A stretch of 63,999 nt of DNA, the filler included, from Licmophora abbreviata (Eukaryota): the NCBI GenBank assembly GCA_900291995.1. It is 15 parts of 15 records of this genome, joined end to end, with 100 filler letters (N's around TTAATTAATTAA, not from the genome) between each part and the next. Parts side by side here need not be neighbours in the genome. Positions count along the whole stretch, not along the records: positions 6,452 to 9,267 come from OLMU01003411.1; positions 9,368 to 11,225 come from OLMU01003412.1; positions 11,326 to 21,834 come from OLMU01003413.1; positions 21,935 to 30,044 come from OLMU01003414.1; 11 more parts are not named here. One strand, given 5' to 3'. Positions 6,452 through 27,026 of this stretch are shown here, piece after piece. A program made the position numbers and the translations under genes. Each line of letters begins with the position of its first letter. Within the stretch, counting starts at the first letter, position 1. The notes beneath the pieces are model-generated. The model made no database searches and had not been told where the DNA came from. It was given only the letters and a program-made list of their open reading frames with translations.

Positions 6452-6511
6452 TAGAGAAAGCGCGAGACCACGCAATCGACTCATCCTTCTGCTCCTCTGT
6501 TGCACACGCAG

Positions 6512-7216
6512 TCCCATGGGGCAAACACATGCTGGCAACCAACAAGTGGACCAACACTGCTAAACGCGACGAGAAACAAAACAAAACCAACGTCCTTCCG
6601 GTTGTGCTCACGAGAGATCCCTACTCATGGATGAACAGCATGTGCAAACACCCCTATGCCGCCAAGTGGCATCACTCGACGCAGCACTGTCCCAATTTGG
6701 TCCCCAACGTGCATGACTATGCTTTGTATCCTTTTTCGGGAAAGAATATTCCGGTGAGGATCAATTTTTCAGGGAAACCATGCGAATGCGACGCAGGAGG
6801 TGTCGAAATGGCCGTCGCTGGCGCATGTGTGGACGGATTGGTATCGACAATATCAGCAAGCGGACTATCCGAGACTCATGATTCGATTTGAAGATTTAGT
6901 CTTTCATCCAAAGGAACTCATTTCGACGATTTGCGAATGTGGAGGCGCCGAACCGATGGATAAGGACGAAAATTCGTTCATTTACATGGTGGACAGCGCC
7001 AAGTGGGGGCCCGGTCATGGAGGGGAAAGTGCAAAGAAGACGTCGCTTATTTCAGCCATGATCAAGTATGGGAGTGAAGCAAGACGGTTGCAGGGATTTC
7101 AGAAGGAAGATCTGGAGCTGGCGCATGTTGCGTTGGATCCTGAACTGATGCGAATTTTTCACTACAATGTACCGTTGCATGACGACGATACTGTAGAAAA
7201 GGCCAAGACATTTTAG
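6512..7216 (+). CDS. Sulfotransferase-like protein (VPWGKH family), 3' exon only; apparent +1 frameshift near 6765-6777
   Basis: Acceptor cgcag at 6511, then (V)PWGKH...TRDPYSWMNSMCKHPY...HCPNL; after the frameshift SLAHVWTDWY...IRFEDLVFHP; the 5' part is lost in the gap. Confidence 0.7.
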
Positions 7217-7307
7217 ATGAGTCGACTGGTATCTGTCACTCGTCTAGAGACTATGAGTAGAAACGTTATTACAGCGTCAAGTAGAAATACAAGTTCCCCG
7301 AACCACA

Positions 7308-10300
7308 TCATTTCAATTCTGTCGCGGCGTCGTAGCCAGCTGGAAGGCGACCTAGTTCGAGAAAGACTTTCGGAACTTCCGTGTTCGGAACGACCTTGTA
7401 GTTGCCCGCTTTGTAGCCTGCCATCCAGAGCCTTGCGCCATCCTGCGGGAGGGCGTCAGAGAAGAAGAGCGTTGTCGGGAACACTTCGCTCTCCCCCAAT
7501 ATGTGCCGCACGGACGCTGTGACTTCTTCATCACTTGCAGCCGACAAGGACGGGCCGCTGGACGGTCGACCGACCAGAAAGTCTACTCGGAACATGTCCT
7601 TGTTAGCCCCGAGCTTCTCTGCCGTCTTCATCAGATAGTCCCAGTCGACAAAGCTGGGAACCTCCTTGTCGAAGCTCCCTTTGACGGCTGTACCATTGCG
7701 ATAGAAGAACGCACCCGTGAAACGCCTCTGGCTTTCGACATAGTTGTACTGAGCGACCCACACCTTTCCCCAAATGACAAAGACACAAAACTCCCATGGA
7801 GGTCGTTCCCAATGGGAGACATGCGAAAAGCGTTCTTCCACTGAAAACCCAGGCTGGACGTTCTTTAGCGCCCAGCTCTCCTTTTCTTGCGCAAGCTCGT
7901 GCAGGTTCTCAGCAAGGCCTTGCGCGACGTCTGCGTTACTAAACTTCTTGCCTTCGGCGGCATTCAGGGACCGTGCTCGCGAGCTAATCATGGTCTCATT
8001 GGTTTGGGGATGTTGACTCACAAGCCATATTCCACCCGTCTCGGAGAAATGATTCGGCTTGGCGCAATAGTTCGTATTGTTGGGAAGGAGTTCGAAAATA
8101 GCCTTTGCCTCCTCCTGTACGTCACCTGCACCTTTGAGTTCCGACCCGTATCGCAACACTAGCTGCTTGGCTTGGTCAATCCCTTGAGACGGCATCCACC
8201 TCTTTCGGGCGCATTTGTCAATGTAAAACGACCAGCTGGGTCGCTGGAGGTTGCGGCGAAGCTTCAAGATGTCCTGCCAGTCTTCATGCCCTTGCAGGAG
8301 ATCGCCAATATCAAAGTCTTCAAACAGCTCGTAGGGAGGCTGTTCCTGAGCAACCACCAGATCCTCGCTTAGTTTGTACTCACCAAGATTAACACCAGCT
8401 ACGACAAAGTCAGTCTGCGTATACCGCGAGCGCTCCCAAGGGCCAGTTCCAGCCATGATTGCGCGTTGCATGCCATCCTGCAAAGCAAAGTAGTACTCCT
8501 TCACCAGCCGATATTCGTGCAGTGGCAACTCGTCTGGTGGGACAACGCTGTCGTCAAAGAGTCCCTGCATCGTACCGAGACGATCCAACTCATGTTGCAT
8601 GGCGTCAAATGCCTTGGGCGTTGAGGGACGTCCGTGTGGCCACTTGACAACGAGTTCATCCAAGTCGTCATGAGGCACCTCCAAGATGAAATCGATGTCA
8701 TAAATGGTGCCTCCTTCGCCGTACAGTTGAAAGTCAAACCGTCGAGGGTAGTCTTCCACTATGCCACTGTCGTGAAGCACGTGAGGAGTTCCCATGGATT
8801 CACCGTATCCATTGGACCCATAAACGATCGCCCCAATTTTAATGTACTGAGATGCAGCGACACCGATGTCCTTCCCTGAGTGGGCCTGGGTAAGCTGGGT
8901 ATTGTAGAATGGCTCGTCGCGATGGCTGAACAAATCCAGAAAAGGCATCATGACTTCCTGCTGGTGATGACCAGGTGTATGGAATCCGCCAGAGCGGTTC
9001 GAAATCACAAACAAAGCTATTCGGATTGCCTCTTCGTCGTTTTTATCGATTCCACATGATTGCGTTATCCATCGTCGGTGACTGCCTGTGTTCTGAGGGG
9101 GCAGATTCTCTCCCACCACGCTTGAGAGAAGATTAATTCCAGGATCGGACCATCCGTCTGGAAGCATCACCGGCTTGGACAAGTGCTCAAGTAGGCGCAA
9201 ATAGGGCGCCTTGTCGGACGTGCCGCTATGATATCGATCAAGCTCACGTACGGTGGCGAGAATGGTTNNNNNNNNNNNNNNNNNNNNNNNNNNNNNNNNN
9301 NNNNNNNNNNNTTAATTAATTAANNNNNNNNNNNNNNNNNNNNNNNNNNNNNNNNNNNNNNNNNNNNGTCTATTCGCAGGTGCTTGTTCACGCATCCGCC
9401 GTTTTCGCGAATCCACCGAATCAAGTCCTCAATCATCTGTCCCACCTCTGTCGTCGCATTCGACTCGATCACACTCTCAGGAACTTCCAACATTGGATCT
9501 GGAAGTCGGCCCCACTCAAGAAACTCGTTCGGGACCTCCGTGTTTGGAACGACCTTATAGTTTCCCTGCTTGTAGCCCGCCATCCACAGCCTCGCGCCAT
9601 CCTCAGGGAGACTGTTGGAAAAGAAGAGCGTCGTCGGAAACACTTCACTCTCCGATAAAATGTGTCTCATTGACGCTTTGACCTGTTCATCGGACGCTCC
9701 GGTCAACGATGGACCGCCAGATGGGCGACCGACGAGGAAGTCGACTCGAAACATGTCCTTGTTGGCTCCAAGCTTCTCCGCTGTCTCGACCAAGTAGTCC
9801 CAATCGACCAATTCCGGAATCTCGTCAAAACTCCCTTTGACAGCCGTTCCATTGCGGTAAAAGTAGGCACCCGTGAATCGCTCCTGCTCTTCCACATAAT
9901 TGAACTGTCCCACCCACACACGACCCCAAATGACAAAGATGCAAAACTCCCAGGGCGGCCTTTCCCAGTGTTGGACATGCGAAAAGCGTTCTTCGACGAC
10001 AAAGCCGGGCTGGACATTCTGCAATGCCCAGGACTCTTTTGCGGGAGCGGTCTCATCCAAGTTGTCGGCCAAGTCGTAGGCTACATCCCAGTTATCAAAC
10101 TCGTCGCCTTCCTCCGCATTGAGCGATCGAGCTTTCGAACTAATCATGGTTTCGTTGGTCACTGGATGCCGACTCACAAGCCAAATCCCACCCGTTTCCG
10201 AGAAATGATTCGGTTTGGCACAAAAGTTGGTAGTGTTGGGCAGGAGCCGGTAAATGACCTCGGCGGTATCCTGACGGTCGCCCGCCCCCTCAAGTTCCGA

Positions 10301-10792
10301 CCCATAGCGCAATGCGAACTGCTCCGCTTGATCGATCCTCTTTCCTTGCGTCGCAGCACCAATCCATCGTTTGCGAGCCACCTTGTCGACGTAAAAGGAC
10401 CATGACTTTCGTGGAAGATTTTTCCGAATCTCTAAGATTTCCCACCACCCCTCGTCTCCTTGAAGCAGACTGCCAATATCAAAGTCTTCAAAGAGTTCGA
10501 AAGGCGGGGTGGTTGTCGCATCTACTTCTTCTGAGTGCGATGGCAACCCGTAGGCTCCCAAATTGACTCCTGCTACCCAAAAGTCGGTTTGCGTAAAATC
10601 AGATGGTTCCAAGATGGAAGCATTGTCGTCAGGGCATGTACCAGTGCTACTGCACTGCCCCGGATGGGTTTGGTGTGTACTAGCAGCCGTGACAGAGTGT
10701 TGCGGATGCGGGTCTTTGGATTCCGCTGCTGTCGCCACCAGTGCAAGTGCCGGCAACAAGAACAACAGCTCCCAGACGTAGCAGCGTGTCAT
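7308..10792 (-). CDS. Probable single gene across the gap: signal peptide, TupA-like ATP-grasp, SET-like domain, second TupA-like ATP-grasp
   Basis: 10792-9368 reads signal peptide, ATP-grasp (YVDKVARKRW, AKPNHFSETGG, VVEERF, EFCIFVIWG, FRVDF, SESEVFP), then WIRENGGCV (SET start). 9267-7308 resumes TVRELDRY..APYLRLL..MMPFLDLFSHRD and ends in a second ATP-grasp. Confidence 0.75.
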
Positions 10793-11489
10793 AATTCTTC
10801 GATTCCAGGATCCGTTAAGGAGTCTAGAGTTCCTGCAGTAGGTAAACTAGTAGATGGAATGATGAACCTTGGATAAACGCCTTGTCGCCTTCTTGTGATC
10901 ATTTCCAACCGGATCTGCAGTGATTGATGATTGAGAACCCTAAAAACTACCCATCGGTCAATGTTCTCGGATAAAAACTACTCGCATTAAAGTAGCAGGA
11001 TGAGCAAACGATCAAGCGCAAGACTTGAAATATTTAGTAGGCGTACCTGTGTACTACGAAATATATTTTATTATAAATGATGTAAGTCTTCGTTGAGAAA
11101 GTTCTTGCTGATTATTTTGTTCATACTTGAGTATCAGCATTACGGATACATTATAATTAAACGTTTACAGGACTTAATACTATTTTGACGGACTCGCGCT
11201 TGAAAGACCTTGCCAAAATTGTGAGNNNNNNNNNNNNNNNNNNNNNNNNNNNNNNNNNNNNNNNNNNNNTTAATTAATTAANNNNNNNNNNNNNNNNNNN
11301 NNNNNNNNNNNNNNNNNNNNNNNNNGTTTTGCGCGCCCTCATCACTCATTGAGTGCCTTTCTCTCCTCTTTTTTCTCTGATGCAGCAGCACATATCACAC
11401 TCAGACGGGCCCGTTTAGATATATCTGAACCAAGAAGTCATCCCCACGCACGCTCAAGGTCCACACGCAACTCAAGTTAAGCCCGAACA

Positions 11490-14228
11490 ATGGTCGCATT
11501 TCTACGACTCCTCCTACCGCCCGTCCTCTTGCTTTCGCATCTGCTTCTTGACAAGGCGATGGCCCAAGTCTACGACATCACCCCGGCCGAGCTTGCCGCG
11601 GACGATGGCATTGTGGGCGACGAGTTTGGCATTTCGGTGTCCATATCGGGAGACACTGCGGTCATTGGGGCCATTCAGTCGGGGGCCGCTTACGTCTTTG
11701 AAAGATCGAATGGCGTGTGGACTCAGACGCAGAAGCTTCTTCCCACGGGTTACGCTGTAGGGGCTCAGTTTGGAGTCTCGGTGTCGATCTCGGGCAATAC
11801 GATTGTCGTTGGCGCAAACGGAGGCCGCGCTAGTGGCATAGCTTCGGGGGCCGCCTACGTGTTTGAAAGACCAGACGTAGATGGGGCTTGGACTCAGAAG
11901 AAGAAGCTTGTCTCCTCAGATGGCGCCTTGTATGACAACTTTGGTTTTTCAGTGTCCATCTCTGTCGATACAATCGTCGTCGGTGCCGGTGCAGACGACG
12001 ATGGGGGTACCAACACAGGGTCTGCCTACGTGTTCGAGCGGACCAATACCTCGTGGACACTGAAACAGAAGCTTCTTGCCTCCGATGCGGCTCAAGAAGA
12101 CTTTTTTCGGAATCTCCGTGTCAGTCTCCGGCAACACGATTGTCGTAGGCGCCTGGCTTGCCATCGTTGGTTCCTCCATGTCAGGATGCGCCTACGTCTT
12201 CGAGAAGTCCAATGACGTTTGGTCTGAGACACAGAAGATTCTTCCTTCCGATGGCGCTTCCGCGGATTTCTTTGGAGTTTCCGTGTCGATCTCTGGCACT
12301 ACGATTGTCGTTGGCGCTAACGGGAACGACGGTACTGGCGAGGACTCCGGCGCTGCGTACGTCTTTGAGAAGTCAAATGATGTCATGTGGCCTCAGACCG
12401 AGACACAGAAGCTTGTGGCTTCTGACGCTGCCACGAACAAGTTTTTTGGACTATCCGTGTCCATCTCTGACGAGAGAATTGTCGGCGGTACACTTTCTGA
12501 CGACGGCGGTGGCACTTCCTCAATGCCCACGTATGTGTTTGAGAAATCAAACCTGACGTGGGAAGAGATCCAAAAGCTGCTGGCTCCGGCCTCTGGGTCC
12601 GGGAATGCAGCTGGTGGTTTTGGTCGATCTGTGGGCATATCCAATGGCCTTGTTATCGTAGGTGATCCCGTTGCGGACCCAGTCATTGCCGCCAATGCCG
12701 GCGCTGTGTATTTCTTCAAGGAAAAAGTAAGTGTTGGCTGCGCGGTGTGGTATCCGTCTGGGATTCTGTCGCTCTGCTCTTGCGGCCGGATTATCCTGGG
12801 GAATTTTTTCACTGACGCTCTTTTGCATCCGTCCTATGGAACAGACGGCTTTTGCCATTGCGGCGGTCGACTCTTCCCTGCCCGAAGATAGTTCTTCTTT
12901 TGCCTTTACTGTCACTCGCAGCGGCAGCACCACGGGCACTGCCAGTGTAGACTTTGCGGTTACAGGCGATGTCGATGGATCTGATTTTGTTGGTGGTGTC
13001 TTGCCAACAGGGACGCTTACTTTTCAGGATGGCGAAACAAGCCAGTCCATCACGATTGAAGTTAATGGAGATACAGATATCGAGTCAGACGAAACGTTTA
13101 CGGTGACACTTAGCAATGCCGCGAATGGGGCAATGATTACCACCGCAACTGCTACGGCCATCGTTCTGAATGATGATGTAAGTACTCTGTTTGGATCGCT
13201 ATCGTCATTTTGTCGTGCCTGGTCTCTCTCATCGCCCTTGTGCTGGACAGCTCAACGTACAAACGACGGCTTTTGCCATTGCGGCTGTCGACTCTTCCCT
13301 GTCCGAAGGTGATACGGGTGTCACTACCTTTGCCTTTACGGTCACTCGCAGCGGCGTCACCACTGGCGTATCAACTGTAGACTTTGCCGTTACAGGCGAT
13401 GTCGATGGATCTGATTTTGTTGGTGGTGTCTTGCCAACAGGGACGCTTACTTTTCAGGATGGCGAAACAAGCCAGTCCATCACGATTGAAGTGAATGGAG
13501 ATACAGATATCGAATCCGACGAAACGTTCACGGTGACACTTAGCAATGCCGCGAATGGCGCAATGATTACTACCGCAACTGCTTCGGCTACAATTGACAA
13601 TGATGACACTGACCTAGAAGCATGTTTAGACGACAGTGACTGTGTCGGAAGTGGGCTTGGCTTTGCATGCGATGCAGGATCGTGCGTGCCGTGCCTGACC
13701 AATATCCAATGCAGTTCCAATACCGACGATGCAAAAACAGTTTGCTTGACCTGTGCGGATATGGGCATGGTGGGCGGATGTACCTCCTCTGACCACGTGT
13801 GCGTTGATTGCGATGCCAACGGTCAATGTCAGAACGCTGGGAGGGGACGTGCGTGTGTGGACAAGACGTGCGTTGGTTGCTCATCGAATTGGCAGTGCAG
13901 GAATCGCGGCGAGTATGAGGGAGACTATTGCGTGGACAACGAGTGCGTTGAATGCAAGTGGAATGGACAGTGCAGCGATCCACAACCCTATTGCGTCGAC
14001 AATGCGTGCGTTGAATGCAAGTGGAATGGCCAGTGCAGCGGATCTGCCGTGGGACCGTATTGCGTGGACAAGACTTGCGTTGAATGCAAATCCAAAAGGC
14101 AATGCCGCAATGCCGATGCCGGACTTGACTGTCTGAATAATGCCTGTGTTGGCTGCACTGCCAACTGGCAATGCCGCAACGCTGACAACGCTGGGTTGAA
14201 CACGTGCGTTAATAATACATGCGTTTAG
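11490..14228 (+). CDS. Secreted protein with 7 FG-GAP repeats, 2 Calx-beta domains and a Cys-rich tail, paralog of 2752-5974; exons about 11490-12726, 12845-13177, 13251-14228; +1 frameshift at the T6 run 12102-12107
   Basis: Signal peptide MVAFLRLLL...; FG-GAP repeats continue across ORFs 11490-12215 and 12076-12891; C-terminal Cys-rich region closely matches copy 1 (CRNRGEYEGDYCV). Confidence 0.82.
12946..13583 (+). repeat. About 208-bp direct repeat (12946-13153 and 13376-13583), a duplicated Calx-beta exon
   Basis: Copies offset by 430 nt with about 7 mismatches by eye, all at synonymous third positions. Confidence 0.9.
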
Positions 14229-15052
14229 TTCTGCAGAGGAAAGCACATGTTTTGTCAGGCGAGGATAAGCGAGAGAGGTCGATACCTCGTACGCGAAGCA
14301 ACAAGGAGGGTTTGATAAAAAGGAAATACCAGAAGTCTACATCTCTAGAGACGAACGATGATAGGCAAAAGATCTGAAGTACATGGTACACATATACCAA
14401 GGAAGCACTCAATGAGATTTGACATTAGCTAAACTGCTTTCATAAGACAACGTGTTGAATGTGAATGTCCTCAGGTCGATCGTATGAGTCTTACATTCGA
14501 ACGCAGCAATTGCACCACAGAGGAAGTAATTGATGGAAATTGCATCATTGCTACCGGTCTGTTTGGCAACGGGTCTGTCGTGGCCGAAAGCCTGTATCTT
14601 ATTCTGTTTAGAGAGAGCTAGATTTGTGAGCCTTTCGCCGTCACCTCGTCTTGATTGAACGAGGGCAATGGATCTACTGTCAACAGGAATTATCAACTAG
14701 GGAGAACAATGAGGCTAGACAACGTTATGGTCTGGTTTGTGTTCGCAAGACCTTGCTCGAGACGGCGGTTGTGCGTATCTGAGGGTGCCACAACTTCATG
14801 ACTCGTGTCGGCGAAGAACGGTAATCTTCCCTCTACTTCCGCCGTCCTATGCGGAAGATCAGCCGTCGCTGAAGATTATTGCATACATTGGACACTGGTA
14901 TCTATCTACACTCGTCCAACACGACGATCTGGCCAACCAGTCGTTAAAAAGTATTGGAGGAAGCAAAATCACAAATACAGCGAAGGCAAACAGTGAAAGT
15001 ACGATCGATTATGCAGGTTCACAAAACGAGAAGGCTCTCGCATAGTTTCTTT

Positions 15053-17593
15053 CTAGTCTTGCTTAGCTGGCGGAGCGCCAAGGCGCCCTGTCTCCAAGAA
15101 TTCTTTAGGCACTTCATCATTCCGAACGAGTTTGTAGTTGCCCTTCTTATAGCCAGCTATCCAAAGCCTGGCGGCATCGGCTGGAAGACTGTCCGAGTGA
15201 AACGTCGTAGTAGGATAAATTTCGCTTTCTGAGACGACGATGCGTAGGGCTGCCACCTTGTCTTCGTAAGTGCCATTGCGCAATGATGGAGAGCTCGCCG
15301 GAATGCCTGTGGGTAGTGTTCGTTCGAAAAGCATTAAGAACATTGTAATATGAGTCCGTGGTTGCTTTCTTATACATTCGCACAATTTCACGCATTTTGA
15401 ATTTACGAGCACCGCTTACCGACAAAAAAGTCTGCTCTGAACATGTCCTTGTGCTTGCCAAGTTCTTCGGCCTGCCTTACAAGCTCCGGCCAGTCCAGCC
15501 AGTCGAATGGAATGTTCTTATGAAAGCTACCTTTAACGGTAGTGCCGTTGCGATAGATAAACGCACCAAAGAAACGATGCTGCTCTTCAATGTAGTTCAT
15601 CTGTCCACACCATACGCGCCCCCAGATGACAAAGATGCACAGCTCCAGCGGAGGACGATCCCATTGATGAAAGTCGACCAAGCGTTCTTCCACGACAAAG
15701 CCTGGATTCACATTCTTCAACGCCCAACTCTCATACGGCTTGGCGATTCCGTGAAGATCTTTGGCAAGACTTCTGGCAACGACCCAGTTGTCAAAGGACT
15801 TGGCCGTCTCGTCGGCAATGAGCTGTCTCGCAGTAGAGCTAACGATCGTCTCATTGGTGTCCAAGTCGCGACTGACGAGCCAAATTCCGTTCGTTTCGGA
15901 AAAGTGCGACGGCTTGGCCGCAAAGTCCGTTTCGTTGGGAAGCAACTTTGTAAATGGCATTCATCTCGTCTTCGACAGTGCCTGTTTCGGAAATCTCCGA
16001 ACCATAGTGCAGCGCGTACAGACGAGGCTGATCGAATCCCATGGTGGGCAACCAGCGCTTGCGTGCCACCTTGTCGACATAAAAGGACCACGACTTGCGC
16101 TCCTGCTTGTTGCGATAGTTGAGAATATCCTGCCACCCTTCGTTGCCTTGAACAAGATCACCAATGTAAAAGTCTTCGTACAATTCAAAGGGCAGTTCAT
16201 CCGTCTCGGTGGGCAAATCGTCCTCTTCGTCACCCATCTTGTAGGTACCCAGGTTGACACCCGCCACGACATAATCCGTCTGCGTAAAGGGGGACCAGGA
16301 GAAGGGATCAATGTCATCGAGGAGAGCATTTCGTATTCCATCCACAAGCGCCGCATGGTAGGCAGCGACCAACTCGCGTTCGTGTTTCGGCACAGACGCC
16401 ACATAGGGCGCGTCTGGTTGGAGAACATCCTGCAAGGCTTCCAGACGCTCCAGTTCCTCTTGGAGTAGGTCCATCGCCTTGTCCATGGTTGGACGCCCGT
16501 TCGGCCACTTGACGACCAATGTCTGATTTTCGTGCAACTCCGCCACACTGATACTATCCGGTTCCTCCACTTGAAAGGTAAATTCGTACGTGCGACCCGT
16601 GTCCTCCTCTACCAATGGAAACGAAAAGTACCTCGGCAATTCTTCCACGATCCCTCCATCCATAAGCAAGCGTGGCGTCCCCAAAGGCGTCCCGAATCCA
16701 ACACTCCCATGAATCGCTTCTCCCTTTTGGATGGTCCTTGCTGCCACAAGGACAATATCTGCTCCCACCTGGAAGGATTGGAGTTGCGTATTGTAGTGAG
16801 GACCATCCCGATGCGAGTATACATCAAAGAAGGGCATCATGGCTTCTTGGTATCGCGAAGCAGTCGTATCGGGAGTCTTGAATCCATTGGATCGGTATCC
16901 CACCACCAAGAGTGCAGCCTTGACCCCCATCTCATCCTGCAAGTCCCCCTCACAGGTGTCACGGTACCACAGCAAGTGACTCCCCACATTCCGCGGCGGG
17001 AGCGAGTCTCCCACGACAGTGGCCAAGAGTTCCTTGCCCCCCTTCGTCCATCCATCGGGAAGACGCATGGGTTGCGTGTATCCAAACAACAAGCGCATGT
17101 AGGGTTCCAAGGCCGACGTGCCGTCGAGGTAGCGCTGGAGTTCTCGATGCGTCACGTGCACGAGATGGCAGAGATCTTCCGATTCCGGGTCGTCGGAAGA
17201 GAGAATGAGATCCCACGGGACGCGGAGGAGCGTGGTGCCTTGGGGGATGGTGGCTGTGGCGAAGACTTTGCGAGAAGGATTGTAAGGAGAAGAATCGTAT
17301 CGGACTTGTTGACGCGCGTCGACCGTGCCTCCGTTCTGGCGAATCCAGTCCGTGACGTCTTGAATCATCGATAGCATCCTAGTAGAGTGTGCTTCCGCCT
17401 CGTTGCAGCTGTCTGTGATGCTTGTATCGCCCTTCGTGTCGACTTCCATGCAGGATTGAAGACTGCGGATGTCGGCGTAGACCGTGGCGGTTTGCTGTGC
17501 GAACACTGCAAACACGACGAGCCGCAATAAGGAGACTCCCACGACGAGGCTCCCAAAACTAGCCCGGCCGAGCGAGAACGGGCGAAGCAGCAT
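15053..17593 (-). CDS. Signal peptide, SET-like domain, TupA-like ATP-grasp; intron 15419-15307; +1 frameshift near 15947-15949
   Basis: WIRQNGGTV, FATATIPQGTTLLRVPWDLI, MMPFFDVYSHRD; then YVDKVARKRW, AKPSHFSETNG, VVEERL, FRADFFVG, SESEIYPT; the spliced junction gives VG-IPASSP. Confidence 0.8.
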
Positions 17594-18047
17594 CCTCCAA
17601 TCTGGTCTGATATGATTTTTGCTCTCTGGTGGACTACACGTAGACTCGTTTCGTACGAGGATGAATGCGACGACGACGAATGTGCACCGACATGGTCAAC
17701 GGGAACATGAGAACCCTTATTCTCGATCTCTCTATATATACTTGCGACACTCTGGTATTCTGTTCTACGCTGCTTCTCTACCAGCCCAAAGGACATTTCT
17801 CGCCCAAGGCTTCCCCTATGAAGTGTGACTGTACTCGTCCATTTATACACTAAAAATGTCAACAGTGTCCAAAATGTCGTTGTCGACTCTGCGCGCTCAC
17901 AATTTGAACTCGATCGGGTGCTTTTTCTTCGTTTGAGAGAGGGATGACGATGATTGAGTATCGGAATGTGACACCCCACGTATCATACACAGACAGACAC
18001 AAAGACACACTGTATCCTCTACTAGATCCACAGTACCAGTGTTGACA

Positions 18048-20129
18048 ATGACGATGCCGAGGAGAATGATCCAACGACGACCCTCCTTTGCGCATCCTTC
18101 TCTTTCTACATCGTCATCATCGTCATCGTCATCGTCGTCAGTATGGAACCTTGCACTCCTCATGACATCCGTGCTCTTCTTCCTTGTCACCATTAATACT
18201 CTCGCCATGTGGAAACTTGTACAGGACGACCACCACAATCAGCAGCTACAACACTCACAAGAGCTTCCCTATTGGTTGTTGTCGACTACTGTGAGTACTG
18301 ACAACCTGTCGACGACGACGGACGAGAGTCTTCTTTCCAATACAACAACTGCTGAATACACCACTCCACCCGCACCCTCCTTCCTCACCTCACGCCACGA
18401 CAATCTCACATTCGGTCATGCAATCCCCACCGACCCCGACGTGTACTACTATTCATCGCCGCCACCACCCCACACTCCACCGGACCATCGCTGGCGCTAT
18501 CGATCCAACAATGTCTATTGGAACACTACAACAGACCCTCTCTACCTTCACTTTCATCAACACGTCACCCGCATGCGACTCTCGCAACACTCCACCGGCG
18601 CCATTGTCCCCACCGCCGTTCGAACCTACCAGAACAAGGTGACCATGACACTGCTGCAGAACAATCTGACGAAACTCGCGACGCTCTGGAACAACTCATT
18701 TCCCTTTACACTCGAACGAACGACCTTTCCACTCTTTGACGGGACCACCTACATTATTACCGGCGACATTGAACTCATGTGGCTGCGAGACTCCTGTGCG
18801 CAAGTTCAACCCTACTTGAGACTCTTGGGACAATCGGAGGAACTACTGGCATTGGTGGAAGGATTGTTGAGGAGGCAAGCCTTGTTTATTCTGCTGGATC
18901 CCTATGCGACATCCTTTCGATTGTTTCTTGATTTTAATTTCAAGGGCAAGATGGCGTTGGAGGAATGGGATTACAAGTGCGGACGAACGGTTCATGTGGC
19001 CATGCACAATTACGAATTGGACAACCTTGCGTACTATTTGAAATTGTCCTACGAGCTCTTTGTTCACTACCATCGTCAATATCAAGAGAGTAACAATACT
19101 ACTACAACAACAATGACGATGAGAGCGCTTGATGACACTTGGTTGCAATCGTTGGATCGAATTTTGGAAATTGTCGAACGTGAACAGAACCACAATGCTT
19201 CCAACTATACGTATCCGGAATTGCCTCGCAACGGCAGAGGAAGTGTCGTGTGCGATGGAGGCGGTCTCTCCTGGAGCGGCTTTCGGCCATCCGACGATCG
19301 GACCAAGTACGGGTACTTGATTCCGGCCAATCAAATGATGGTGGTGTCCCTGCGGAATGTTGTGAAAATTCTATCGAGCATGGCGGACGGCAATGACGCT
19401 CGCTTGATGCGAGTGCAACAACTGGCCCAGTCCATGGACGAGGGCATTCACAAGCATGGTGTGGTCGACGATGCGGAGTTTGGGCCTATCTACGCTTACG
19501 AAGTAGACGCCTGTGGAAACTACAAGGCCATGGATGATGCCAACATTCCGTCGCTGCTGTCGTTGCCCTATTTGCAATACACATCTCCGCACGATCCAAA
19601 CAATACGATTCGAGACAATACCCGACGGTTTGTCTTGTCACCTCGGAACAAGTTCTTTTACAGAAGCGAAGACCATGGCTTGGAGTACGTCAGTATGGGT
19701 CTTCGACTATCAGGTGTCAACAGCTCTACAGAACAACAGAACTGGAACGAGTCGGAGCTCACCAAACTCGGCAACATCCCAAATACAAGCACAGGGAATC
19801 AAGGGATCGGGTCGGAACACACGAAATCCTGTTATATCTGGCACTTGTCGCTCATTATGCAGGCGCTCACCTCGACAGACGACAATGAGTTGCGAGACTT
19901 ATTGAATATGCTGCAACGAACGGCGTCACACGATCTAATGCACGAGAGTTTTCATATGGACAGGCCCAAACGGTTCACAAGAAAGTCATTCGCATGGGCC
20001 AATAGTCTCTTTGCGGAGCTCATCTCGACACGACTGGAGGATATCGTGCGAATCATGGGTAATGAGACCCAAAGAAAAACAAAACGGATATTGGATTCCA
20101 ATACTCTAGCTATTGCTGCACCATCATGA
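18048..20129 (+). CDS. Glycoside hydrolase family 125 (exo-alpha-1,6-mannosidase-like), type II membrane anchored
   Basis: Motifs TGDIELMWLRDS, YELDNL, GFRPSDD..YGYLIPAN, MDDANIPSLLSLPYL, FAWANSLF; N-terminal TM helix; possible in-frame intron near 19693-19794. Confidence 0.88.
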   Translation: MTMPRRMIQRRPSFAHPSLSTSSSSSSSSSSVWNLALLMTSVLFFLVTINTLAMWKLVQDDHHNQQLQHSQELPYWLLSTTVSTDNLSTTTDESLLSNTTTAEYTTPPAPSFLTSRHDNLTFGHAIPTDPDVYYYSSPPPPHTPPDHRWRYRSNNVYWNTTTDPLYLHFHQHVTRMRLSQHSTGAIVPTAVRTYQNKVTMTLLQNNLTKLATLWNNSFPFTLERTTFPLFDGTTYIITGDIELMWLRDSCAQVQPYLRLLGQSEELLALVEGLLRRQALFILLDPYATSFRLFLDFNFKGKMALEEWDYKCGRTVHVAMHNYELDNLAYYLKLSYELFVHYHRQYQESNNTTTTTMTMRALDDTWLQSLDRILEIVEREQNHNASNYTYPELPRNGRGSVVCDGGGLSWSGFRPSDDRTKYGYLIPANQMMVVSLRNVVKILSSMADGNDARLMRVQQLAQSMDEGIHKHGVVDDAEFGPIYAYEVDACGNYKAMDDANIPSLLSLPYLQYTSPHDPNNTIRDNTRRFVLSPRNKFFYRSEDHGLEYVSMGLRLSGVNSSTEQQNWNESELTKLGNIPNTSTGNQGIGSEHTKSCYIWHLSLIMQALTSTDDNELRDLLNMLQRTASHDLMHESFHMDRPKRFTRKSFAWANSLFAELISTRLEDIVRIMGNETQRKTKRILDSNTLAIAAPS

Positions 20130-20341
20130 TGAATCAATATTTGAACATACTACTACAGGGACCACACAATGCAAGACGATATTTTACGATTGAGTATCTC
20201 CTCTTCCATACCAGACGCTATAGGATGGTAGTGTTGATGGCAACGTGTAAGAACATGTATTGCTGCACCTCGTACAACATTAGATCTAGACAGACTGTTT
20301 CCTTCTCGCAGCTCATTCCTTTGTTTGATCTTTAGTTTTTC

Positions 20342-21438
20342 TTATAATAGTAATTGAAACTGCGGTTGCTGCAGGGCCCACTGATAGAGGTCAACATCCC
20401 ATCGATTGACGGCACGCACCTTGTTGTAGATGTTGCTGCCCGTCAGGTTTGGCCGTTTGCGATTCACATTTCGCTTGTTTACCGCATCACTGTTCTTGAT
20501 TCCCCAGGACATTGTTGCACTAGTAGTAGAAGTATTCGTATGGACATCCTGAGTGTCATGACCCAGCAACATGATTCGCAACTGCCTTGTACACTCTTCC
20601 AGGTTGCTCTGAAAGCATACGAGATCCATGTCCAACAAGAACTGCTGGGCCAGTTGTAGAGACGTGTCATTGACTGGCACTTGGTAATAGTTCTGGGCAT
20701 CGTAGGCAGTCCAGGTCGGCCCCTGCCCCGCCAGGAATCGAACCATATCATTCCTATACTGCCAATAGTAGTTGCATCGCGTGGCGTCCGAAAAGAGACA
20801 GTCGTCCCATTCGGGTGTGGCATGACTGTGGTAGTAAAAGGCACTGATCGCTCGATCCACGGGTTCTCGGAGCAGCGTGATGAGCTTGCAGCGTTCGGTC
20901 CCCGTCTTGTGGAGGAAGGGGCGAGTGAGATGACCCGTGTGATAGACCTTATCGTGAAAGGAGTGAGTGGGAGGAAGCATGGTGGGTGGTCTGGACGAGC
21001 CGTACTTGTCGTAGAAGGAGTACCACTCTCGATTGATCCATGGAAGGTTTGTTGTTGCTGTTGTAGTATTATTGGTGGAAGAAGCAGTAGTAGTAGTAGT
21101 ACGAGTAGCAGAGTAGTAGCAGTACAGAGGGACTTGAGATTGGCGCCCAGGGCAGTGCCGGCCGTCTTGGGAATGTGAAAAAAGACAAGGCAATTGGCGT
21201 CTCCGGGGGGACGAGAGGCATGAAGCTTTTTCGGAGAAGTAGTAGTAGTAGTTTCATACTGGTGCTGACACGTACTACTACTAGTACACGTACCGGTACT
21301 ACTAGCAGTAGTGTTCGAATGAGACGACAGTGATGCAGACATGTTTTCCCAAAAGACTGCGTCGTCGGTGACTAGCGCAATGGTCGCCGCTACCAAAACC
21401 ACCGCCGCCACGACATACGCAATGCGCGACTGCACCAT
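20342..21438 (-). CDS. Golgi-type sulfotransferase (Sulfotransfer_2/HS2ST-like); frame change near 21125-21058
   Basis: N-terminal TM; 5'-PSB motif FFHIPKTAGT; 3'-PB motif LLREPVDRAISAFYY; C-terminal N.WDVDLYQWA; a 68-nt GT..AG intron 21125-21058 would restore the frame. Confidence 0.8.
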
Positions 21439-21720
21439 GATGACGACGACACTGACGCAAGAAAGTGGTGCGACTGATGAAGAGAGAAACGACGAGGTCA
21501 CTTGGTCATCCATCCATCCTCTCCTTTTTCCCGCCAAACGGACGCAGAAGGCGTCTCAAAATTCAAAGTGTGCACGGTACCTCACCTCCGGGTCCGGCCA
21601 CGCTCACTTTTCCATCGTCTGTTCAATTACCTTCCCAACACTCTGTCTACCCAAAACTCCTGTTCCTACGCTCAGGAGTGCGCACAGAATGTTTCACACA
21701 GTTCACTCACTCTATCGACC

Positions 21721-23911
21721 ATGGGCGCCACCCTGAGCAAGAAGTCCGAGTCGTTTTCGGTCGTTTCGACGGCCGACGACTGCAGTGACGTTCTTGTTTC
21801 AGTCTACCATGATGATGAACAACAACAACAACAANNNNNNNNNNNNNNNNNNNNNNNNNNNNNNNNNNNNNNNNNNNNTTAATTAATTAANNNNNNNNNN
21901 NNNNNNNNNNNNNNNNNNNNNNNNNNNNNNNNNNAAGAAAACAAGACCCTTTGAAACTACTGGGAACTCCTACTACTACTTCCACGAGTCGACGGTCCTT
22001 TTCCTCCTGCACCAGTACCTTTCTGAGCACCAGCACTAGAAGTAGTACAACCGGAATGGATCCAGACGACGAGGATGAATCATCCTCCGCATCCTCCGGC
22101 TACAACACAGACGGCTGCGTCTCGGCAATTCCAAAGTCCTCCTCCTGGTCCACTGGACTCGACGAGCCATGGTACTCGTACTATACACAGGATGAATTGA
22201 ACTTGCCCCAAGGCGAACTTCCCACATCCGAAAGTGACTTGAGACCCTCACAGACCAATCTACGAACCTACCATGTCGTCACGACGGCAGCCCTCCCCTG
22301 GATGACCGGCACGGCCGTCAATCCTCTCTTGCGAGCGGCACACCTCTCGCAGCTCAATCGACCCTTTGTTCCATACCATACTACAACTGACTTGCCCACA
22401 TCGACCGTCACTCTAGTCCTTCCCTGGCTCGAGTCGTCCGAAGATCGCCTTCATTTGTATGGCAACGAATGGAAGGACAAGACGCGGGCGGACCAAGATG
22501 CCTATATTCGGGACTGGTTGGCGCACAAGGCAGAACTGCCCCTCGAAGCGGATCTTGCCACGGGGGGAATTCAAATTCAATTTTACAATGCGCGTTGGCA
22601 CAAGGGTATGAACAGTATCTTTGCCATGGGAGATATCGAGTCGTCCATACCGGACGACCAAGCGGGTAAGAGTATCGTTGTTTTGAAAGTACCATGTTAT
22701 AGTGCCGAACAGACTCGTACGACGTCGCTCACATCAATTCCTCTTTCGATATTGAACATTCTTATTCAATAGACTGCTGCATTTTGGAAGAGCCGGAACA
22801 TTTGAATTTCTATCGCGCACCGAGCAAGGACTGGTGGACCGAAAAGTTCAACCACGTCGTTGGTATTGGCCATACGAACTATAAGGCCTATGTGAGAGAG
22901 CAATTCTACCTCATGTCACCCGTTGTGGGCGTTCTCAGTAGTTGGATGGTCCGAGCCTATTGTCACAAACTCGTCAAATTGAGTAGTGTATTGCAGACAT
23001 ATGCTCCAGAAAAGGAAGTCGTGTGCAATGTTCATGGCATTCGATCGGATTTTTTGAAAGTGGGGAGACAGCAGGATCTATCCAAGCTGCGGGGTATTTA
23101 CTTTATTGGAAAGCTTCTGTGGGCGAAAGGCTTTGATCGGATGATTGAACTGCAGGTGGAGTATCGAAAGGTGACGGGACACTACTTTGACTTGGATATT
23201 GTGGGCAGTGGACCGGATCAGACGGAGATTGAACGCGCCTTTTATGGCAAGGGACAGCCGAGTCCGAAAAAGCCATCAAAGGCCGGTTCGGAAGATCATC
23301 AGCAGCAGCCGAGTCAGCCGCCGATGCAGCAATCGCAATTGCGTATTCCAAAGTCCAGGTATGAGTTTCGCAAGGAAGTGATTCCAGTAGAGTTCCAAGG
23401 ACGCCATGATCATGCCGATTTTTGCCAGGGATACAAGATTTTTGTCAATCCAAGCTTGACGGAAGTGTTGTGTACGACGACCGCAGAAGCTCTCGCTATG
23501 AACAAGTTCGCACTTGTACCAGCCCACCCGTCGAATGTATTCTTTCAACAATTTCCCAACTGTCTGCAATACCAAAGTCGGACTGAATTTGCTTCTTTGC
23601 TCCAGTACGCACTGTCGCACGACCCCGAGCCACTCTCGTCTGAACTGCAGTACGTGTTGACCTGGGAAGCTGCTACAGAACGTTGTTTGGATGCAGCAGC
23701 CATTTCTCGTCGCGATGCTATGCGACGGGAAAGAGTCGGAAAGGCTAAAGACGACGCAAAAATTGCACAGCTGCATTACCAACTCGGCAAGGGCGTCAAG
23801 GGCGATGTCATTCGTAAGGTTCTTGGAGGAGGGCCTGTTTCTGACCAGGCGCAGTACGGGATGCAGGCCGTGCAGCAGCAACAGCAACAACCAGTGGAAG
23901 TCGGGTGTTGA
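21721..23911 (+). CDS. DGD: Digalactosyldiacylglycerol synthase (GT4); spans a gap; intron 22666-22772
   Basis: VVTTAALPWMTGTAVNPLLRAA, ILEEPEHLN, HTNY, CHKLVKLS, NVHG, YFIGKLLWAKG, FVNPSLTEVLCTTTAEALAM; the start MGATLSKK before the gap is inferred. Confidence 0.88.
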
Positions 23912-24206
23912 GGATTGTCAAGTCTGATTTGAGTTTTGTGCATGTGATACATGGAAGTAGATGTGACGATGTGAATAGTGCAGTACGATGCCATGTCAGT
24001 GAGTGATGCTGTCATCGTGGACAGAAGTGGGCACCCCGATCTTGTTTGAAACGTATGGTGAATAAGTGATAGTTGTTAGCCAGTAAGTAGAATGAATCAA
24101 CTTGAAATTTATAGTTATGAACATCAGGCAGTCCGTACGAAGTCGACCTGCAACACTATTAAGACTCAACCTCTGCTGAGAGCTAATGCTTTCCTCGCTT
24201 CCTCAT

Positions 24207-26639
24207 CTACACCACCAAGGCTAACTCTGGGCACTCCGTCTCTCTGTCGATCTCGCGGCTCTCAACAACTTTCAACTCGGACAGGGCTCCAGTCTCGACA
24301 AACTCAGTCGGGACTTCACTATTGGGAACAAGCCTGTAATTCAGCATGGCATAGCCTGATTTCCAAAGCCTTGCAGCCTCGTGGTTGAGCTCGGGTGTGT
24401 GAAACACGGGCGTTGGATGAAAGGCGCTCTCAGAGTATACGTAACGTACTTCCTTGATTCGCTCCGCGCGGGAAGCATTCTTTCGTCGCATCACGGGGGA
24501 GTTGGCAGAAACACCAACGAAAAAGTCGGCACGAAACATATCCTTGTTGGCGCCAAACCGTTCGGTCAATGCTACAAGCCGTTCCCAGTCCACGTAGTCA
24601 GGCAACTGAAAGTTTTCAAATCCATGTGCTACGGTTCCATTTCGATAAAAGAATCCGCCGTAGAGTCGATCTTGCTTTCTTACTAGATTCATCTGACCTC
24701 CCCAGAAAACGCCCCACATAGTGTACAGCTGAAACTCGACTGCAGTACAGGAGGGGTGGTCAACATCCACAAAGCGTTCTTCTACGACAACACCCCCCTC
24801 GACGTTTTTTAATGCCCAGCTCTCAAACGAAAATGGTTCGGCTCGCAAATTGCGAGACAAACTTTCTGCGACTGTGCTGTGACGAAACTGCGAGTCCGGG
24901 CGGACCTCTCGGATGTTCGAACTCACGCTAGTTTCGTTGGTATCGCGATCGAAACTCACGAGCCACACCCCACTGCCTCCCGAGTGATGCGTCGGCTTAG
25001 CGCAGTAATCCGTGCGCTCTGGTAACATTTCCAGTAGTGCGTGCGCATCTTCCTGCAATCTCCCGGAGAGTTCCGATCCATAGCGCAATATGTATGGCTT
25101 TGGCTGATCAATGCCAATAGAAGGGACCCAACGCTTCCTGGCAATCTTGTCGCCATAAAATGATAGAGTCGGCCTTTCAAGCACTTGACGATAGGCCAGC
25201 AGCTCCTCCCATGTCTCATCACCCGAAACAGATTTTCCAATATCAAAGTCTTCAAAGAGCTCAAACAATTGCTCGTTGCTGTGTCGCTCATCTTCCTCTC
25301 CACTACTCGCAAGCTGATACTGGGCTAGATTAAGACCATTCACATTTAAATCCATCATCGTCCATGGCGATACAGATGCCTTGCCCTCGGTCGCAAGCGC
25401 AAGACGAATTCCCTCCACGAGCGCCTCATGATATCTCCAAATGATTCGCTGCTCATAACTTGGAGCCCTTGTTTGCAGTTCCGGATCCATGGTGTAAGTA
25501 GACAGCGACTCGAGTCTCCCAAGTTCGTTCCACAAGAGCTGCAATGCCATCTTGGATGGTTGACGTCGCCATTTGATGACATGACGAAGATTATGCGCGT
25601 CGGCTACACCTCTCCATATACTATCTTGCGTCACATCCACGTCAAACACAATCGTTTCCATCCTTTTGTCGCCATGATTGTTGTTAATTTGGATAGGAAG
25701 CAGTTCAAACCGCCGGGGATAGTCTTCCACAATCCCATGGTTCATCAAGACAGTGTGCATTCCAACGGGTTGCTTTCCAAAGCCAAGAGACACATGAATC
25801 GGTTGTCCCGCCACAATATTCTCCGACGCTCGCAACTGAAAACTCTCTCCAATCGCAGCATTGCTAATTTCCGTATTGTAATAGGGTGGATCCCGATGCG
25901 TGTACAGGTCGAACAAGGGAATCATGACCGATTGTGTCGAGTCCTTATTGCTCGCTGGGTGGTGCAATCCCGGCGACCGTCGTGTCGAGACCAACAAGGC
26001 AGTCTGCCATGCCTCGTCATTATGTTGCATTGTAGGAATCGCAGTGTTTCCATTACTATTAGAATTTGTACCACACCATACCTGCCACCATTGTGCAGTA
26101 GCATCAATCTGTCGAGGCAACCAGTAGTCGCCCAAAATGATGCGAAACATACGCTGACCCCACGAACTCCAACCACTCGGGGTGTGTCGTTGTCCAAGAC
26201 TACTGGGTTGGTCCGTTCGTAGCAACACAGAGTGTAAATACCGAGCATATGGAGTGTCTGTTTGGAGTTCCCGCTGTGTGACTCTAACAAGCTCGCAGAG
26301 ATCATGGTCTTCTGGATCATCTGGATGAACAATGAGGTGCCATGGAACTTCGAGTAGAATTGTGCCAGCCCGAATGTAGCTCGTCGCGTACATCTGTGGC
26401 GGTCTGCTTGCATCTTCATCTTCTAATAATATATCTTGACGAGAATCCACAATACCACCGTTCTCAAGAACCCAGGACTTGAGATTGATAAGCAGTTGTC
26501 TTGGGTCATGGCGATGATGATGTGTTGCGACGTCAATATTTTCGGCCAAGACAACCGTACCAAGGGAAAAAGTCCGTAGAAAAACAATTCCGTTGAGGAG
26601 AAGTGCCCAAAGAATAGGGAACGAAAGGCGATACATCAT
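24207..26639 (-). CDS. Signal peptide, SET-like domain, TupA-like ATP-grasp (intact and intronless)
   Basis: Uninterrupted ORF; WVLENGGIV, YATSYIRAGTILLEVPWHLI, MIPLFDLYTHRD; YGDKIARKRW, AKPTHHSGGSG, VVEERF, EFQLYTMWG, FRADF, YSESAFHP. Confidence 0.85.
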   Translation of the reverse strand: MMYRLSFPILWALLLNGIVFLRTFSLGTVVLAENIDVATHHHRHDPRQLLINLKSWVLENGGIVDSRQDILLEDEDASRPPQMYATSYIRAGTILLEVPWHLIVHPDDPEDHDLCELVRVTQRELQTDTPYARYLHSVLLRTDQPSSLGQRHTPSGWSSWGQRMFRIILGDYWLPRQIDATAQWWQVWCGTNSNSNGNTAIPTMQHNDEAWQTALLVSTRRSPGLHHPASNKDSTQSVMIPLFDLYTHRDPPYYNTEISNAAIGESFQLRASENIVAGQPIHVSLGFGKQPVGMHTVLMNHGIVEDYPRRFELLPIQINNNHGDKRMETIVFDVDVTQDSIWRGVADAHNLRHVIKWRRQPSKMALQLLWNELGRLESLSTYTMDPELQTRAPSYEQRIIWRYHEALVEGIRLALATEGKASVSPWTMMDLNVNGLNLAQYQLASSGEEDERHSNEQLFELFEDFDIGKSVSGDETWEELLAYRQVLERPTLSFYGDKIARKRWVPSIGIDQPKPYILRYGSELSGRLQEDAHALLEMLPERTDYCAKPTHHSGGSGVWLVSFDRDTNETSVSSNIREVRPDSQFRHSTVAESLSRNLRAEPFSFESWALKNVEGGVVVEERFVDVDHPSCTAVEFQLYTMWGVFWGGQMNLVRKQDRLYGGFFYRNGTVAHGFENFQLPDYVDWERLVALTERFGANKDMFRADFFVGVSANSPVMRRKNASRAERIKEVRYVYSESAFHPTPVFHTPELNHEAARLWKSGYAMLNYRLVPNSEVPTEFVETGALSELKVVESREIDRETECPELALVV

Positions 26640-27026
26640 TACCAGGCACTGCTGATGATGGCGATCGATGTGGTGAGGCAAGGATGACTAATGTCTGTGT
26701 GTTCGACGTTCGAGAGGCGGTTGGCGCCAAAACTCCAGCAAACGACACATCGAGCACCAAAACGAGTTTGTAATCTCACGCCATTAATACAAAACAATGC
26801 TCTACTCGAAATATACACAACCATGTGCGAATACAAGAGACTCACACGAGGACCGCGCGCGCGCCGATGCGAGAAAGAGGCGCCAAAGAAAACCGTCGCG
26901 GTTCTCGTGTTGGTGTTTGTGTTTGGTGCGGAAGAGTGGCGCCGAGGATCGCTACGAGTATGTGTAATGTGCTCTGCCATCATTGTAGTACAGCACACTA
27001 CACATCCCGCACAGCAAAACACCAAG

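Follow-up and report, generated by a model that had tools for sequence, protein, structure and literature searches.

Predicted secretory proteins of the diatom Licmophora abbreviata that join a SET-like module to a TupA-like ATP-grasp domain

A stretch of 63,999 nucleotides from the Licmophora abbreviata assembly GCA_900291995.1, here called the window, carries three related genes, all on the minus strand (7308-10792, 15053-17593 and 24207-26639), in each of which a hydrophobic N-terminal leader is encoded together with a SET-like module and the ordered motif series of an ATP-grasp enzyme, with four ligase domains in total. We hold it moderately probable that their products are paralogous diatom secretory-pathway enzymes, in which a luminal ATP-dependent amide ligase is combined with a SET-derived module that holds the substrate. 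The genes and their domains had been placed in an initial annotation, and open reading frames and profile searches bear out both the coordinates and the content given there. Of the three outcomes named there as refuting its reading, none was obtained. New here is that a known family of ligases occurs in a eukaryotic, secretory form and within a fusion of a new kind; the ligase domains fused to SET-like modules group in one clade, and a gene nearby, for a secreted 2-oxoglutarate (2OG) oxygenase-like protein, is found fused to the unit elsewhere. Already known are the SET-like and ATP-grasp fusion protein TTLL12 and the secreted SET proteins of diatoms, the BacSETs.

Gene models and window layout

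The window is a chain of short contigs and not continuous DNA. It contains 14 identical 100-base linkers, each consisting of 44 N, TTAATTAATTAA and 44 N, at positions 6352-6451, 9268-9367, 11226-11325, 21835-21934 and 30045-30144 and at nine more. Since the contigs are strung together by these linkers, gene order and clustering across any of them are unverified, and the three fusion genes are neighbours only if the contig order holds. The content of the window is eukaryotic and diatom-like, with the best relatives coming from Fragilariopsis cylindrus, Seminavis robusta, a Bacillariaceae metagenome-assembled genome and MMETSP transcripts. Four contigs (6452-9267, 9368-11225, 11326-21834 and 21935-30044) bear the three genes, whose parts are as follows.

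24207-26639, minus strand: gene 3, a single open frame of 810 amino acids (aa) with leader, SET-like module and ATP-grasp domain
25389-26510, minus strand: SET-like module of gene 3, SETD6/SETD3/LSMT type, C-terminal helical lobe included
24237-25352, minus strand: predicted TupA-like ATP-grasp domain of gene 3 (predicted local distance difference test, pLDDT, of the model 86.6; hhalign 95.2%)
15053-17593, minus strand: gene 2, with leader, SET-like module and ATP-grasp domain, a frameshift and an intron (stop codon 15053-15055)
9368-10792, minus strand: gene 1 on its upstream contig, with leader, first ATP-grasp copy (approximately 9497-10726) and the start of the SET-like module, running to the contig end
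9268-9367, no strand: artificial linker inside gene 1 (44 N, TTAATTAATTAA, 44 N)
7308-9267, minus strand: gene 1 on its downstream contig, with the rest of the SET-like module and the second ATP-grasp copy (approximately 7335-8444)

By the profiles built for this analysis, the SET-like module of gene 3 extends over aa 44-417 and its ATP-grasp domain over aa 406-801, the latter with the motifs DKIARKRW, AKPTH, ESWAL, VVEER, FRADFF and SES. The motifs listed in the initial annotation recur in all copies with small deviations, gene 3 having WV for WI and gene 2 EL for EF, and apart from the first two SET motifs of gene 1, which would lie in the stretch missing between its contigs. Gene 2 loses its frame after the first third of the ligase domain through one extra base in an 'aaa' run (15947-15949), and an intron of 113 bases (GT..AG, 15307-15419) is predicted. 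A marine metagenome contig of 190 bases (run X3), which spans positions 15797-15987 of gene 2, is identical except for one base fewer at 15947, and this absence restores the frame and yields the residues expected from the paralogues. As this is one contig at a depth of approximately 3, the metagenome support for the frame is modest; by it, the extra base is more likely a homopolymer error or strain variant than the mark of an old pseudogene. Reads from four runs cover gene 2 only patchily.

Gene 1 is interrupted by a linker and hence lies on two contigs, whose continuity we infer. On the upstream contig, one frame passes from a complete first ATP-grasp copy into the start of a SET-like module, and the downstream contig begins in-frame in the middle of such a module and continues into the second ligase domain. 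The two contig ends fit a single SET-like module in the same orientation, with approximately 50 residues absent between them, and the two ligase copies, 75% identical to each other, are sisters in the tree (support 100). Since the order ATP-grasp/SET-like/ATP-grasp is absent from the 183 database proteins examined by profile scan, the three-domain form of gene 1 is likely, though unproven.

The linker within gene 1, the order of its domains, which none of the 183 examined proteins shows, and the frameshift of gene 2 could also mean that the set is in part an assembly artefact, with gene 1 a false join of two paralogues, gene 2 a pseudogene and gene 3 the only intact fusion. We consider this improbable: the contig ends of gene 1 complement one SET-like module, its upstream contig joins an ATP-grasp copy to a SET-like start on its own, its ligase copies are mutual closest relatives, and an independent contig is free of the extra base of gene 2.

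All three N-termini contain a hydrophobic stretch in the first 30 residues, with 12-residue Kyte-Doolittle maxima of 2.35-2.80, as expected from the signal peptides annotated initially. Similar leaders occur in most of the homologues, and each of the four window ligase domains has retained an internal NGT sequon. The predicted location of the fusion proteins is therefore luminal or secretory. ATP is available to luminal enzymes. Plastid targeting was considered and rejected, there being no Phe after the likely cleavage sites, as plastid targeting would require.

ATP-grasp fold of the ligase domain

The AlphaFold2 model of the gene 3 ligase domain, built on 24 family members, has a pLDDT of 86.6 and a predicted template modelling score of 0.86. 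Searched against the PDB with Foldseek, it gives 128 matches at E <= 1e-3, of which those listed are ATP-grasp enzymes, led by ArgX/LysX, cyanophycin synthetase, D-Ala-D-Ala ligases (Ddl), DcsG, RimK and PsnB. In a VIA-align comparison with 48,161 chains the best match is ArgX (Z 13.1, root-mean-square deviation 3.2, 208 aligned); 47 chains have a Z of at least 8 and all 50 listed rows are ATP-grasp-fold proteins, the ATP-grasp kinases PPIP5K2 (Z 12.0) and ITPK1 and rifampin phosphotransferase among them. The ATP-grasp fold, which the initial annotation had proposed from motif order, is secure at the level of the predicted model. Scans of domain libraries with the window C-domains gave sub-threshold matches only (Pfam ATPgrasp_ST, E 0.053; NCBIfam rimK-related, E 0.23), and a PDB sequence-profile search with the C-domain alignment returned nothing relevant.

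Residues K139, E211/E212, R294, D296 and E328 (numbering of the gene 3 domain) are invariant in the 24 family members and align to K112, E165, R250, D252 and E264 of TupA-like proteins. Across the diatom ligase family, the motif residues fixed in bacterial TupA-like proteins show little or no variation, and each of the four window copies retains those that are invariant in both families, namely the Lys of AKP.H, the Glu of ESWAL, the Glu-Glu of VEER, the Arg-x-Asp of FR.DF and the Glu of SE. What is generally known of the ATP-grasp superfamily would assign nucleotide- and Mg-binding roles to the Lys, the hinge Glu, the Arg-x-Asp and the later Glu. Judged by its conserved residues, the ligase is probably active.

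Kinship with TupA-like amidoligases

In a language-model Atlas, 28 of the 30 named neighbours of the ligase domain are PF14305 (TupA) clusters, with a score of 0.94. A tblastn search of 72,556 plasmids with P0063, a relative of the ligase, matched 16 records, all weakly (E 0.05-0.9); 12 of the matches fall in genes that bear the annotation 'ATP-grasp fold amidoligase family protein', and two in 'glycosyl transferase' genes, one of which is PF14305 (E 5e-74). Eleven genes fetched from these plasmid matches were aligned into a profile that serves as the bacterial TupA-like reference, and the three of them that were checked against Pfam are all PF14305 (E 1e-42 to 5e-74).

Comparison of 24 close diatom sequences with the 11 bacterial references by hhalign gives 70.5% (E 3.9e-5), with the region just N-terminal to the DK motif also aligned, and when 34 more diverse members are used instead, the probability rises to 95.2% (E 2.8e-8, 219 columns). 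The motifs are aligned in order, DK with DK, AKPxH with KCNH, ESWAL..VVEE with rEw.Yk..I.E, FRxDiFV with RVDLY and SE with GE (diatom first). As controls, a single TupA-like protein against the same 34-member profile reaches 32% (E 4.9e-4), and a single E. coli DdlB 0.5% (E 0.11). From these sequence comparisons we conclude that the ligase domain represents a divergent eukaryotic branch of the TupA-like amidoligases, beyond Pfam's current model. The TupA-like kinship proposed initially is thus upheld by the hhalign and Atlas results, but it does not extend to the cut-off of PF14305.

Several of the reference genes, on Klebsiella and Duffyella plasmids (L001, L003, L005 and L010), adjoin MipA/OmpV and two-component regulator genes, and one of them (L010) lies beside an annotated mcr-8.1 gene. 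This plasmid setting resembles the CrrAB/CfmP context, as far as the latter is described in the available excerpt of its source (PMC13419641).

The SET-like module

The N-terminal module is SET-like and of the LSMT/SETD6 type, in agreement with the initial annotation. Against Pfam SET (PF00856, cut-off 22.4 bits), gene 2 scores 22.6 bits (E 1.5e-4) and gene 3 14.3 bits, the gene 1 fragment has no match, and three of the seven relatives with matches reach the cut-off. A model of the gene 3 module, built on 13 sequences (pLDDT 81.3), matches SETD6 (Z 21.8, 315 residues), SETD3 (Z 19.4) and Rubisco LSMT (Z 19.3), in alignments that span 307-322 residues and cover model residues 1-380. It also matches PDB chain 8xzv_I of the plastid-encoded RNA polymerase (Z 19.4), and the next family by fold, SMYD, reaches a Z of 11 only. 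The best Foldseek match is SETD3 (E 5.8e-11), and searched against the PDB the sequence profile of the module finds LSMT (E 3.2e-4) and SETD3 (E 3.1e-3) only. On the strength of these fold and profile matches, the module is assigned to the LSMT/SETD6 type, its helical substrate-binding lobe included.

The GxG, N-H and catalytic Tyr motifs are the S-adenosylmethionine (SAM)-binding and catalytic motifs of SET enzymes. In the profile alignment, G-L-G of LSMT stands opposite P-x-x in the diatom modules, with GxG absent, and S/T-H of the family stands opposite N-H of LSMT and SETD3 (T-H in gene 3, S-H in genes 1 and 2). Across 12 aligned modules, N-H is kept in two, the other ten have S, T, I, A or Q in place of the Asn, and the His is gone in five. 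A two-residue insertion precedes the region of the catalytic Tyr, whose position is ambiguous and mostly occupied by Phe. With GxG and the Asn of the NH motif absent, a working methyltransferase is doubtful; the initial description as a methyltransferase-fold module holds for the fold, and by its motifs the module is probably no longer a working methyltransferase. For the SET-like domain of TTLL12, inactivity is attributed to the loss of the same Asn in the available excerpt of the source (PMC3520985).

Family extent, architectures and tree

The ligase family comprises 178 representative clusters at E <= 1e-3 among 1.84 billion representative proteins, 72 of them at E <= 1e-30, and the similarity of the ligase domains is far beyond chance. 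Pattern scans found no relative of the ligase domain in prokaryotes (185,579 species genomes) and none in viral contigs, and a pattern scan of prokaryote genome contigs with the GH125 neighbour as query gave no match either. The taxonomy of the distant relatives is taken from a few source names and from the eukaryotic gene content of two long metagenome loci. Profiles for the ligase, the SET-like module and the third domain were run over 183 database proteins and six window pieces, with the following census of architectures.

Ligase domain only: 109
Fragments with less than 40% profile coverage: 56
SET-like module and ligase: 9 (genes 3 and 1b included)
Tandem ligase domains: 7
SET-like module only: 5
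SET-like module, ligase and third domain: 1 (P0036)
Third domain only: 2

In P0011, P0043 and P0051, which form a separate branch, a class I methyltransferase domain (PF13578, E 1.8e-6 to 1.1e-11) lies upstream of the ligase, which makes a second and independent case of this ligase paired with a methyltransferase fold. One further relative carries a ShK domain.

A FastTree phylogeny with Shimodaira-Hasegawa-like support was built from 93 eukaryotic and 11 bacterial domains with a profile coverage of at least 70%, and thus omits the two pieces of gene 2 and the domains under that coverage. All nine SET-linked ligase domains fall in one clade of ten rows (support 96), the tenth row being a 441-aa protein beside a fused one. 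As the SET-linked domains share one clade, the fusion of SET-like module and ligase looks like a single, retained event.

Comparison with known systems

TupA-like amidoligases, such as the C-terminal domain of Campylobacter jejuni Cj1438, Proteus WemR and Klebsiella CfmP, have the same fold as the diatom domains and share with them the motif order DK..R, K.xH.SG, E...P.I..E, R.D,.E.T. According to the available excerpts, Cj1438C forms an amide on the C6 carboxylate of polymer-bound glucuronate (PMC11800379), and members of the family are generally predicted to put amino-acid decorations on surface polysaccharides (PMC13419641). By analogy with what these excerpts describe, ATP-dependent amide formation on a polymer-borne carboxylate may be expected of the diatom domains as well (PMC11800379, PMC13419641). 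In contrast to the TupA-like proteins, the diatom domains are eukaryotic, are preceded by a secretory leader and score under the Pfam threshold. They are also longer (approximately 370 aa versus approximately 240-290 aa), with extra N-terminal and loop segments, and their fusion partners are SET-like, class I methyltransferase, ShK or 2OG-oxygenase-like domains, whereas those of TupA-like domains are glycosyltransferases.

A precedent for the pairing of the two folds is provided by TTLL12, which is described in the available excerpt of its source (PMC3520985) as an N-terminal SET-like domain, nearest to SETD3, SETD4 and SETD6 and with its SAM-binding Asn lost, followed by a TTL-type ATP-grasp domain; it is reported to be widely conserved in eukaryotes and to act on histone and tubulin modification. 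As far as that excerpt goes, TTLL12 and the diatom fusions are alike in combining a SET-like module with an ATP-grasp fold and in the loss of the critical Asn, but the ligase motifs are partly lost in TTLL12 and kept in the diatom proteins. The ATP-grasp domain of TTLL12 belongs to the TTL family, for which there is no match among the Pfam results listed for the window proteins, and by fold TTLL11 ranks only 35th against the diatom ligase model (Z 9.2). TTLL12 is not known to have a secretory leader. The initial annotation knew of no characterised protein with this architecture. No description of a diatom fusion of SET-like module and TupA-like ligase was found in the literature, where subscription papers and closed supplements could mention one, but TTLL12 is an analogous SET-like and ATP-grasp precedent.

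The BacSETs (Nemoto et al. 2020, Mar Biotechnol 22:551) are, in the available parts of the accounts that cite them, protein methyltransferases with a SET domain that are specific to Bacillariophyceae, targeted to the endoplasmic reticulum (ER), silicon-responsive and co-expressed with cell-wall genes, with cell-wall proteins and long-chain polyamines as proposed targets (PMC11151724, PMC11554505, bioRxiv 10.1101/2020.11.23.393678). By these partial accounts, BacSETs and the window proteins are alike in being diatom-restricted secreted SET-type proteins, and the parts available mention no ATP-grasp domain for BacSETs.

Like SETD6, SETD3 and Rubisco LSMT, the diatom module is two-lobed, with a SET domain and a helical substrate-binding lobe. 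Unlike them, it is devoid of GxG, has Ser or Thr for the Asn of the NH motif and mostly Phe at the catalytic Tyr, follows a secretory leader and is fused to a ligase.

The 2OG-oxygenase-like neighbour and other nearby genes

Further features on the contigs of genes 2 and 3 are as follows.

27857-29065, minus strand: candidate 2OG-Fe(II) oxygenase-like gene, 402 aa, hydrophobic leader and acidic tail, same contig as gene 3
18048-20129, plus strand: GH125 metal-independent alpha-mannosidase (E 1.2e-107) with a long Ser/Thr-rich N-terminal region, gene 2 contig
20342-21513, minus strand: sulfotransferase-like gene, near threshold, gene 2 contig
22056-23911, plus strand: GT1-type glycosyltransferase in two frames, gene 3 contig

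The gene at 27857-29065 lies approximately 1.2 kb upstream of gene 3, with one opposite-strand gene between them. Its product is 46% identical over 322 aa (E 6e-92) to residues 800-1101 of P0036, in which the oxygenase-like domain sits behind the SET-like module and the ATP-grasp domain, and in P0119 the end of the ligase domain runs into the same oxygenase-like domain (E 2e-118). The link between oxygenase and ligase thus consists of two fusion proteins and one adjacency only. Pfam gives no match for the protein encoded at 27857-29065. The Atlas places it among 2OG-Fe(II) oxygenase clusters (0.95), with a borderline result in the tool's own consistency check, and a His-x-Asp followed by a later His is found in the usual order. 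As a lead, these features suggest that the protein may be 2OG-Fe(II) oxygenase-like.

The GH125, sulfotransferase-like and glycosyltransferase neighbours fit work on secretory glycans, but such proximity is weak evidence in a eukaryote and proves little. At 11490-14228 on the plus strand, overlapping open frames encode FG-GAP repeats (E 1e-48 to 1e-50) together with a Calx-beta domain and a tail rich in Cys, and probably represent one secreted adhesion-type gene split by introns or frameshifts. On a 90-kb eukaryotic metagenome contig (L019), a stand-alone relative of the ligase (7484-9013, plus strand) stands head-to-head with a GT92-family glycosyltransferase (5433-7268, minus strand).

Proposed function and alternatives

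We hypothesize that the fusion proteins act in the lumen of the ER, Golgi or vesicles, or extracellularly. The ligase would use ATP to convert a carboxylate to an acyl-phosphate, which would then be joined to an amine to form an amide bond, and its target would be a secreted or cell-wall macromolecule, either a protein side chain or a uronic-acid glycan. Both the amide-ligase chemistry and the nature of the substrate are proposed here by analogy with known enzymes. The SET-like module would descend from methyltransferases of the SETD6/SETD3/LSMT type and retain their two-lobed substrate-clamping fold, which may be suited to gripping a stretch of protein and threading a lysine or histidine. The module would most likely hold or present a substrate, perhaps a lysine-rich one, rather than methylate it, with a weak or altered methyltransferase still possible. 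Candidate reactions are the formation of an amide between uronic-acid glycans and the amines of lysine or polyamines, and the attachment of an amino acid or polyamine to wall proteins at their Asp/Glu side chains.

Several observations weigh against a TupA-like amide ligase with a substrate-holding SET-like module. PF14305 misses three window ligase copies even at E 10 and is absent from the two pieces of gene 2 at E <= 0.1; as it finds no window copy, formal membership in the TupA family fails at the curated threshold. It likewise matches none of 24 family members and one of 91 relatives, P0063, at 22.5 bits (E 9.2e-5) and thus under its cut-off of 25 bits. Direct Pfam hints are limited to sub-threshold matches to ATPgrasp_ST in four of the 24 family members, and the hhalign control covers one other ATP-grasp family only. 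On the side of the SET-like module, the loss of activity is read from motifs, F or Y may still fill the position of the catalytic Tyr, and the His of the NH motif is present in the window copies. Finally, none of 48 metagenome loci with ligase relatives (13 of them of at least 5 kb) shows a SET-like or 2OG-like match nearby, from which it follows that most family members work without those partners.

That the window copies keep this His, and an aromatic residue near the position of the catalytic Tyr, would also fit bifunctional enzymes, in which an active luminal lysine/histidine methyltransferase of the BacSET kind and an active ligase would act sequentially on the same cell-wall protein or polyamine. 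This alternative, possible though rather unlikely, gains from the likeness in fold and profile to the active enzymes SETD6, SETD3 and LSMT, and from the PF13578 fusions of P0011, P0043 and P0051, which, being found in another branch of the ligase, suggest a recurrent functional tie between ligation and methylation. The silicon response of the secreted diatom SET proteins and their co-expression with cell-wall genes, as given in the partial accounts, would suit it as well (PMC11151724, PMC11554505, bioRxiv 10.1101/2020.11.23.393678). However, GxG is gone, the Asn of NH is replaced in ten of 12 modules and the His is lost in five, and it is to the loss of the equivalent Asn that the missing methyltransferase activity of TTLL12 is ascribed in the available excerpt (PMC3520985).

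A broader proposal would combine the SET-like module, the ligase and the 2OG-oxygenase-like protein in a luminal apparatus by which the lysines of biosilica proteins or polyamines of diatoms are decorated and silica formation is directly shaped. Hydroxylation would fall to the oxygenase and the binding or methylation of lysine to the SET-type module, and the ATP-grasp domain would add an amide-linked residue, a uronic-acid glycan cross-link or a phosphate. SET-like, ligase and oxygenase-like domains are all present in one polypeptide in P0036, and we regard the proposal in this full form as speculative and unlikely to hold.

Silaffins bear phosphorylated trimethyl-hydroxylysine. If the ATP-grasp domain were a phosphotransferase (kinase), it might act, for instance, on hydroxylated residues supplied by the 2OG-oxygenase-like protein, to which the ligase unit is related by the fusions in P0036 and P0119, and the fold matches to PPIP5K2 (Z 12.0), ITPK1 and rifampin phosphotransferase are consistent with this. 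Yet the sequence kinship is with TupA-like amidoligases and not with kinase families, and the characterised TupA-like enzyme makes amides according to the available excerpt (PMC11800379), which renders a kinase highly improbable. Slightly less probable again is a non-catalytic scaffold of two pseudoenzymes, as proposed for TTLL12, which follows the same two-fold logic and is inactive in vitro in the excerpted account (PMC3520985), for while the SET motifs are degenerate in the diatom modules too, the diatom family conserves the invariant ligase residues of TupA-like proteins, and none of the four window copies has lost them, a pattern unexpected for a dead enzyme.

Conclusions

The enzymes that install unusual modifications on the cell-wall proteins, polyamines and glycans of diatoms are largely unknown, and bioinformatic work has until now pointed mainly to secreted SET proteins as candidates. 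In one sub-branch of these proteins, intact ligase motifs are now found together with decayed SET motifs, which suggests ATP-driven amide formation in the lumen of a eukaryotic secretory pathway. The analysis defines an un-annotated family of 178 representative clusters, which has no curated Pfam match and in which fusion with SET-like, class I methyltransferase and 2OG-oxygenase-like domains recurs, and it adds a second, independent pairing of SET-like and ATP-grasp folds to that of TTLL12. The fusion proteins are new candidate enzymes for diatom cell-wall modification, a role that is testable in model diatoms.

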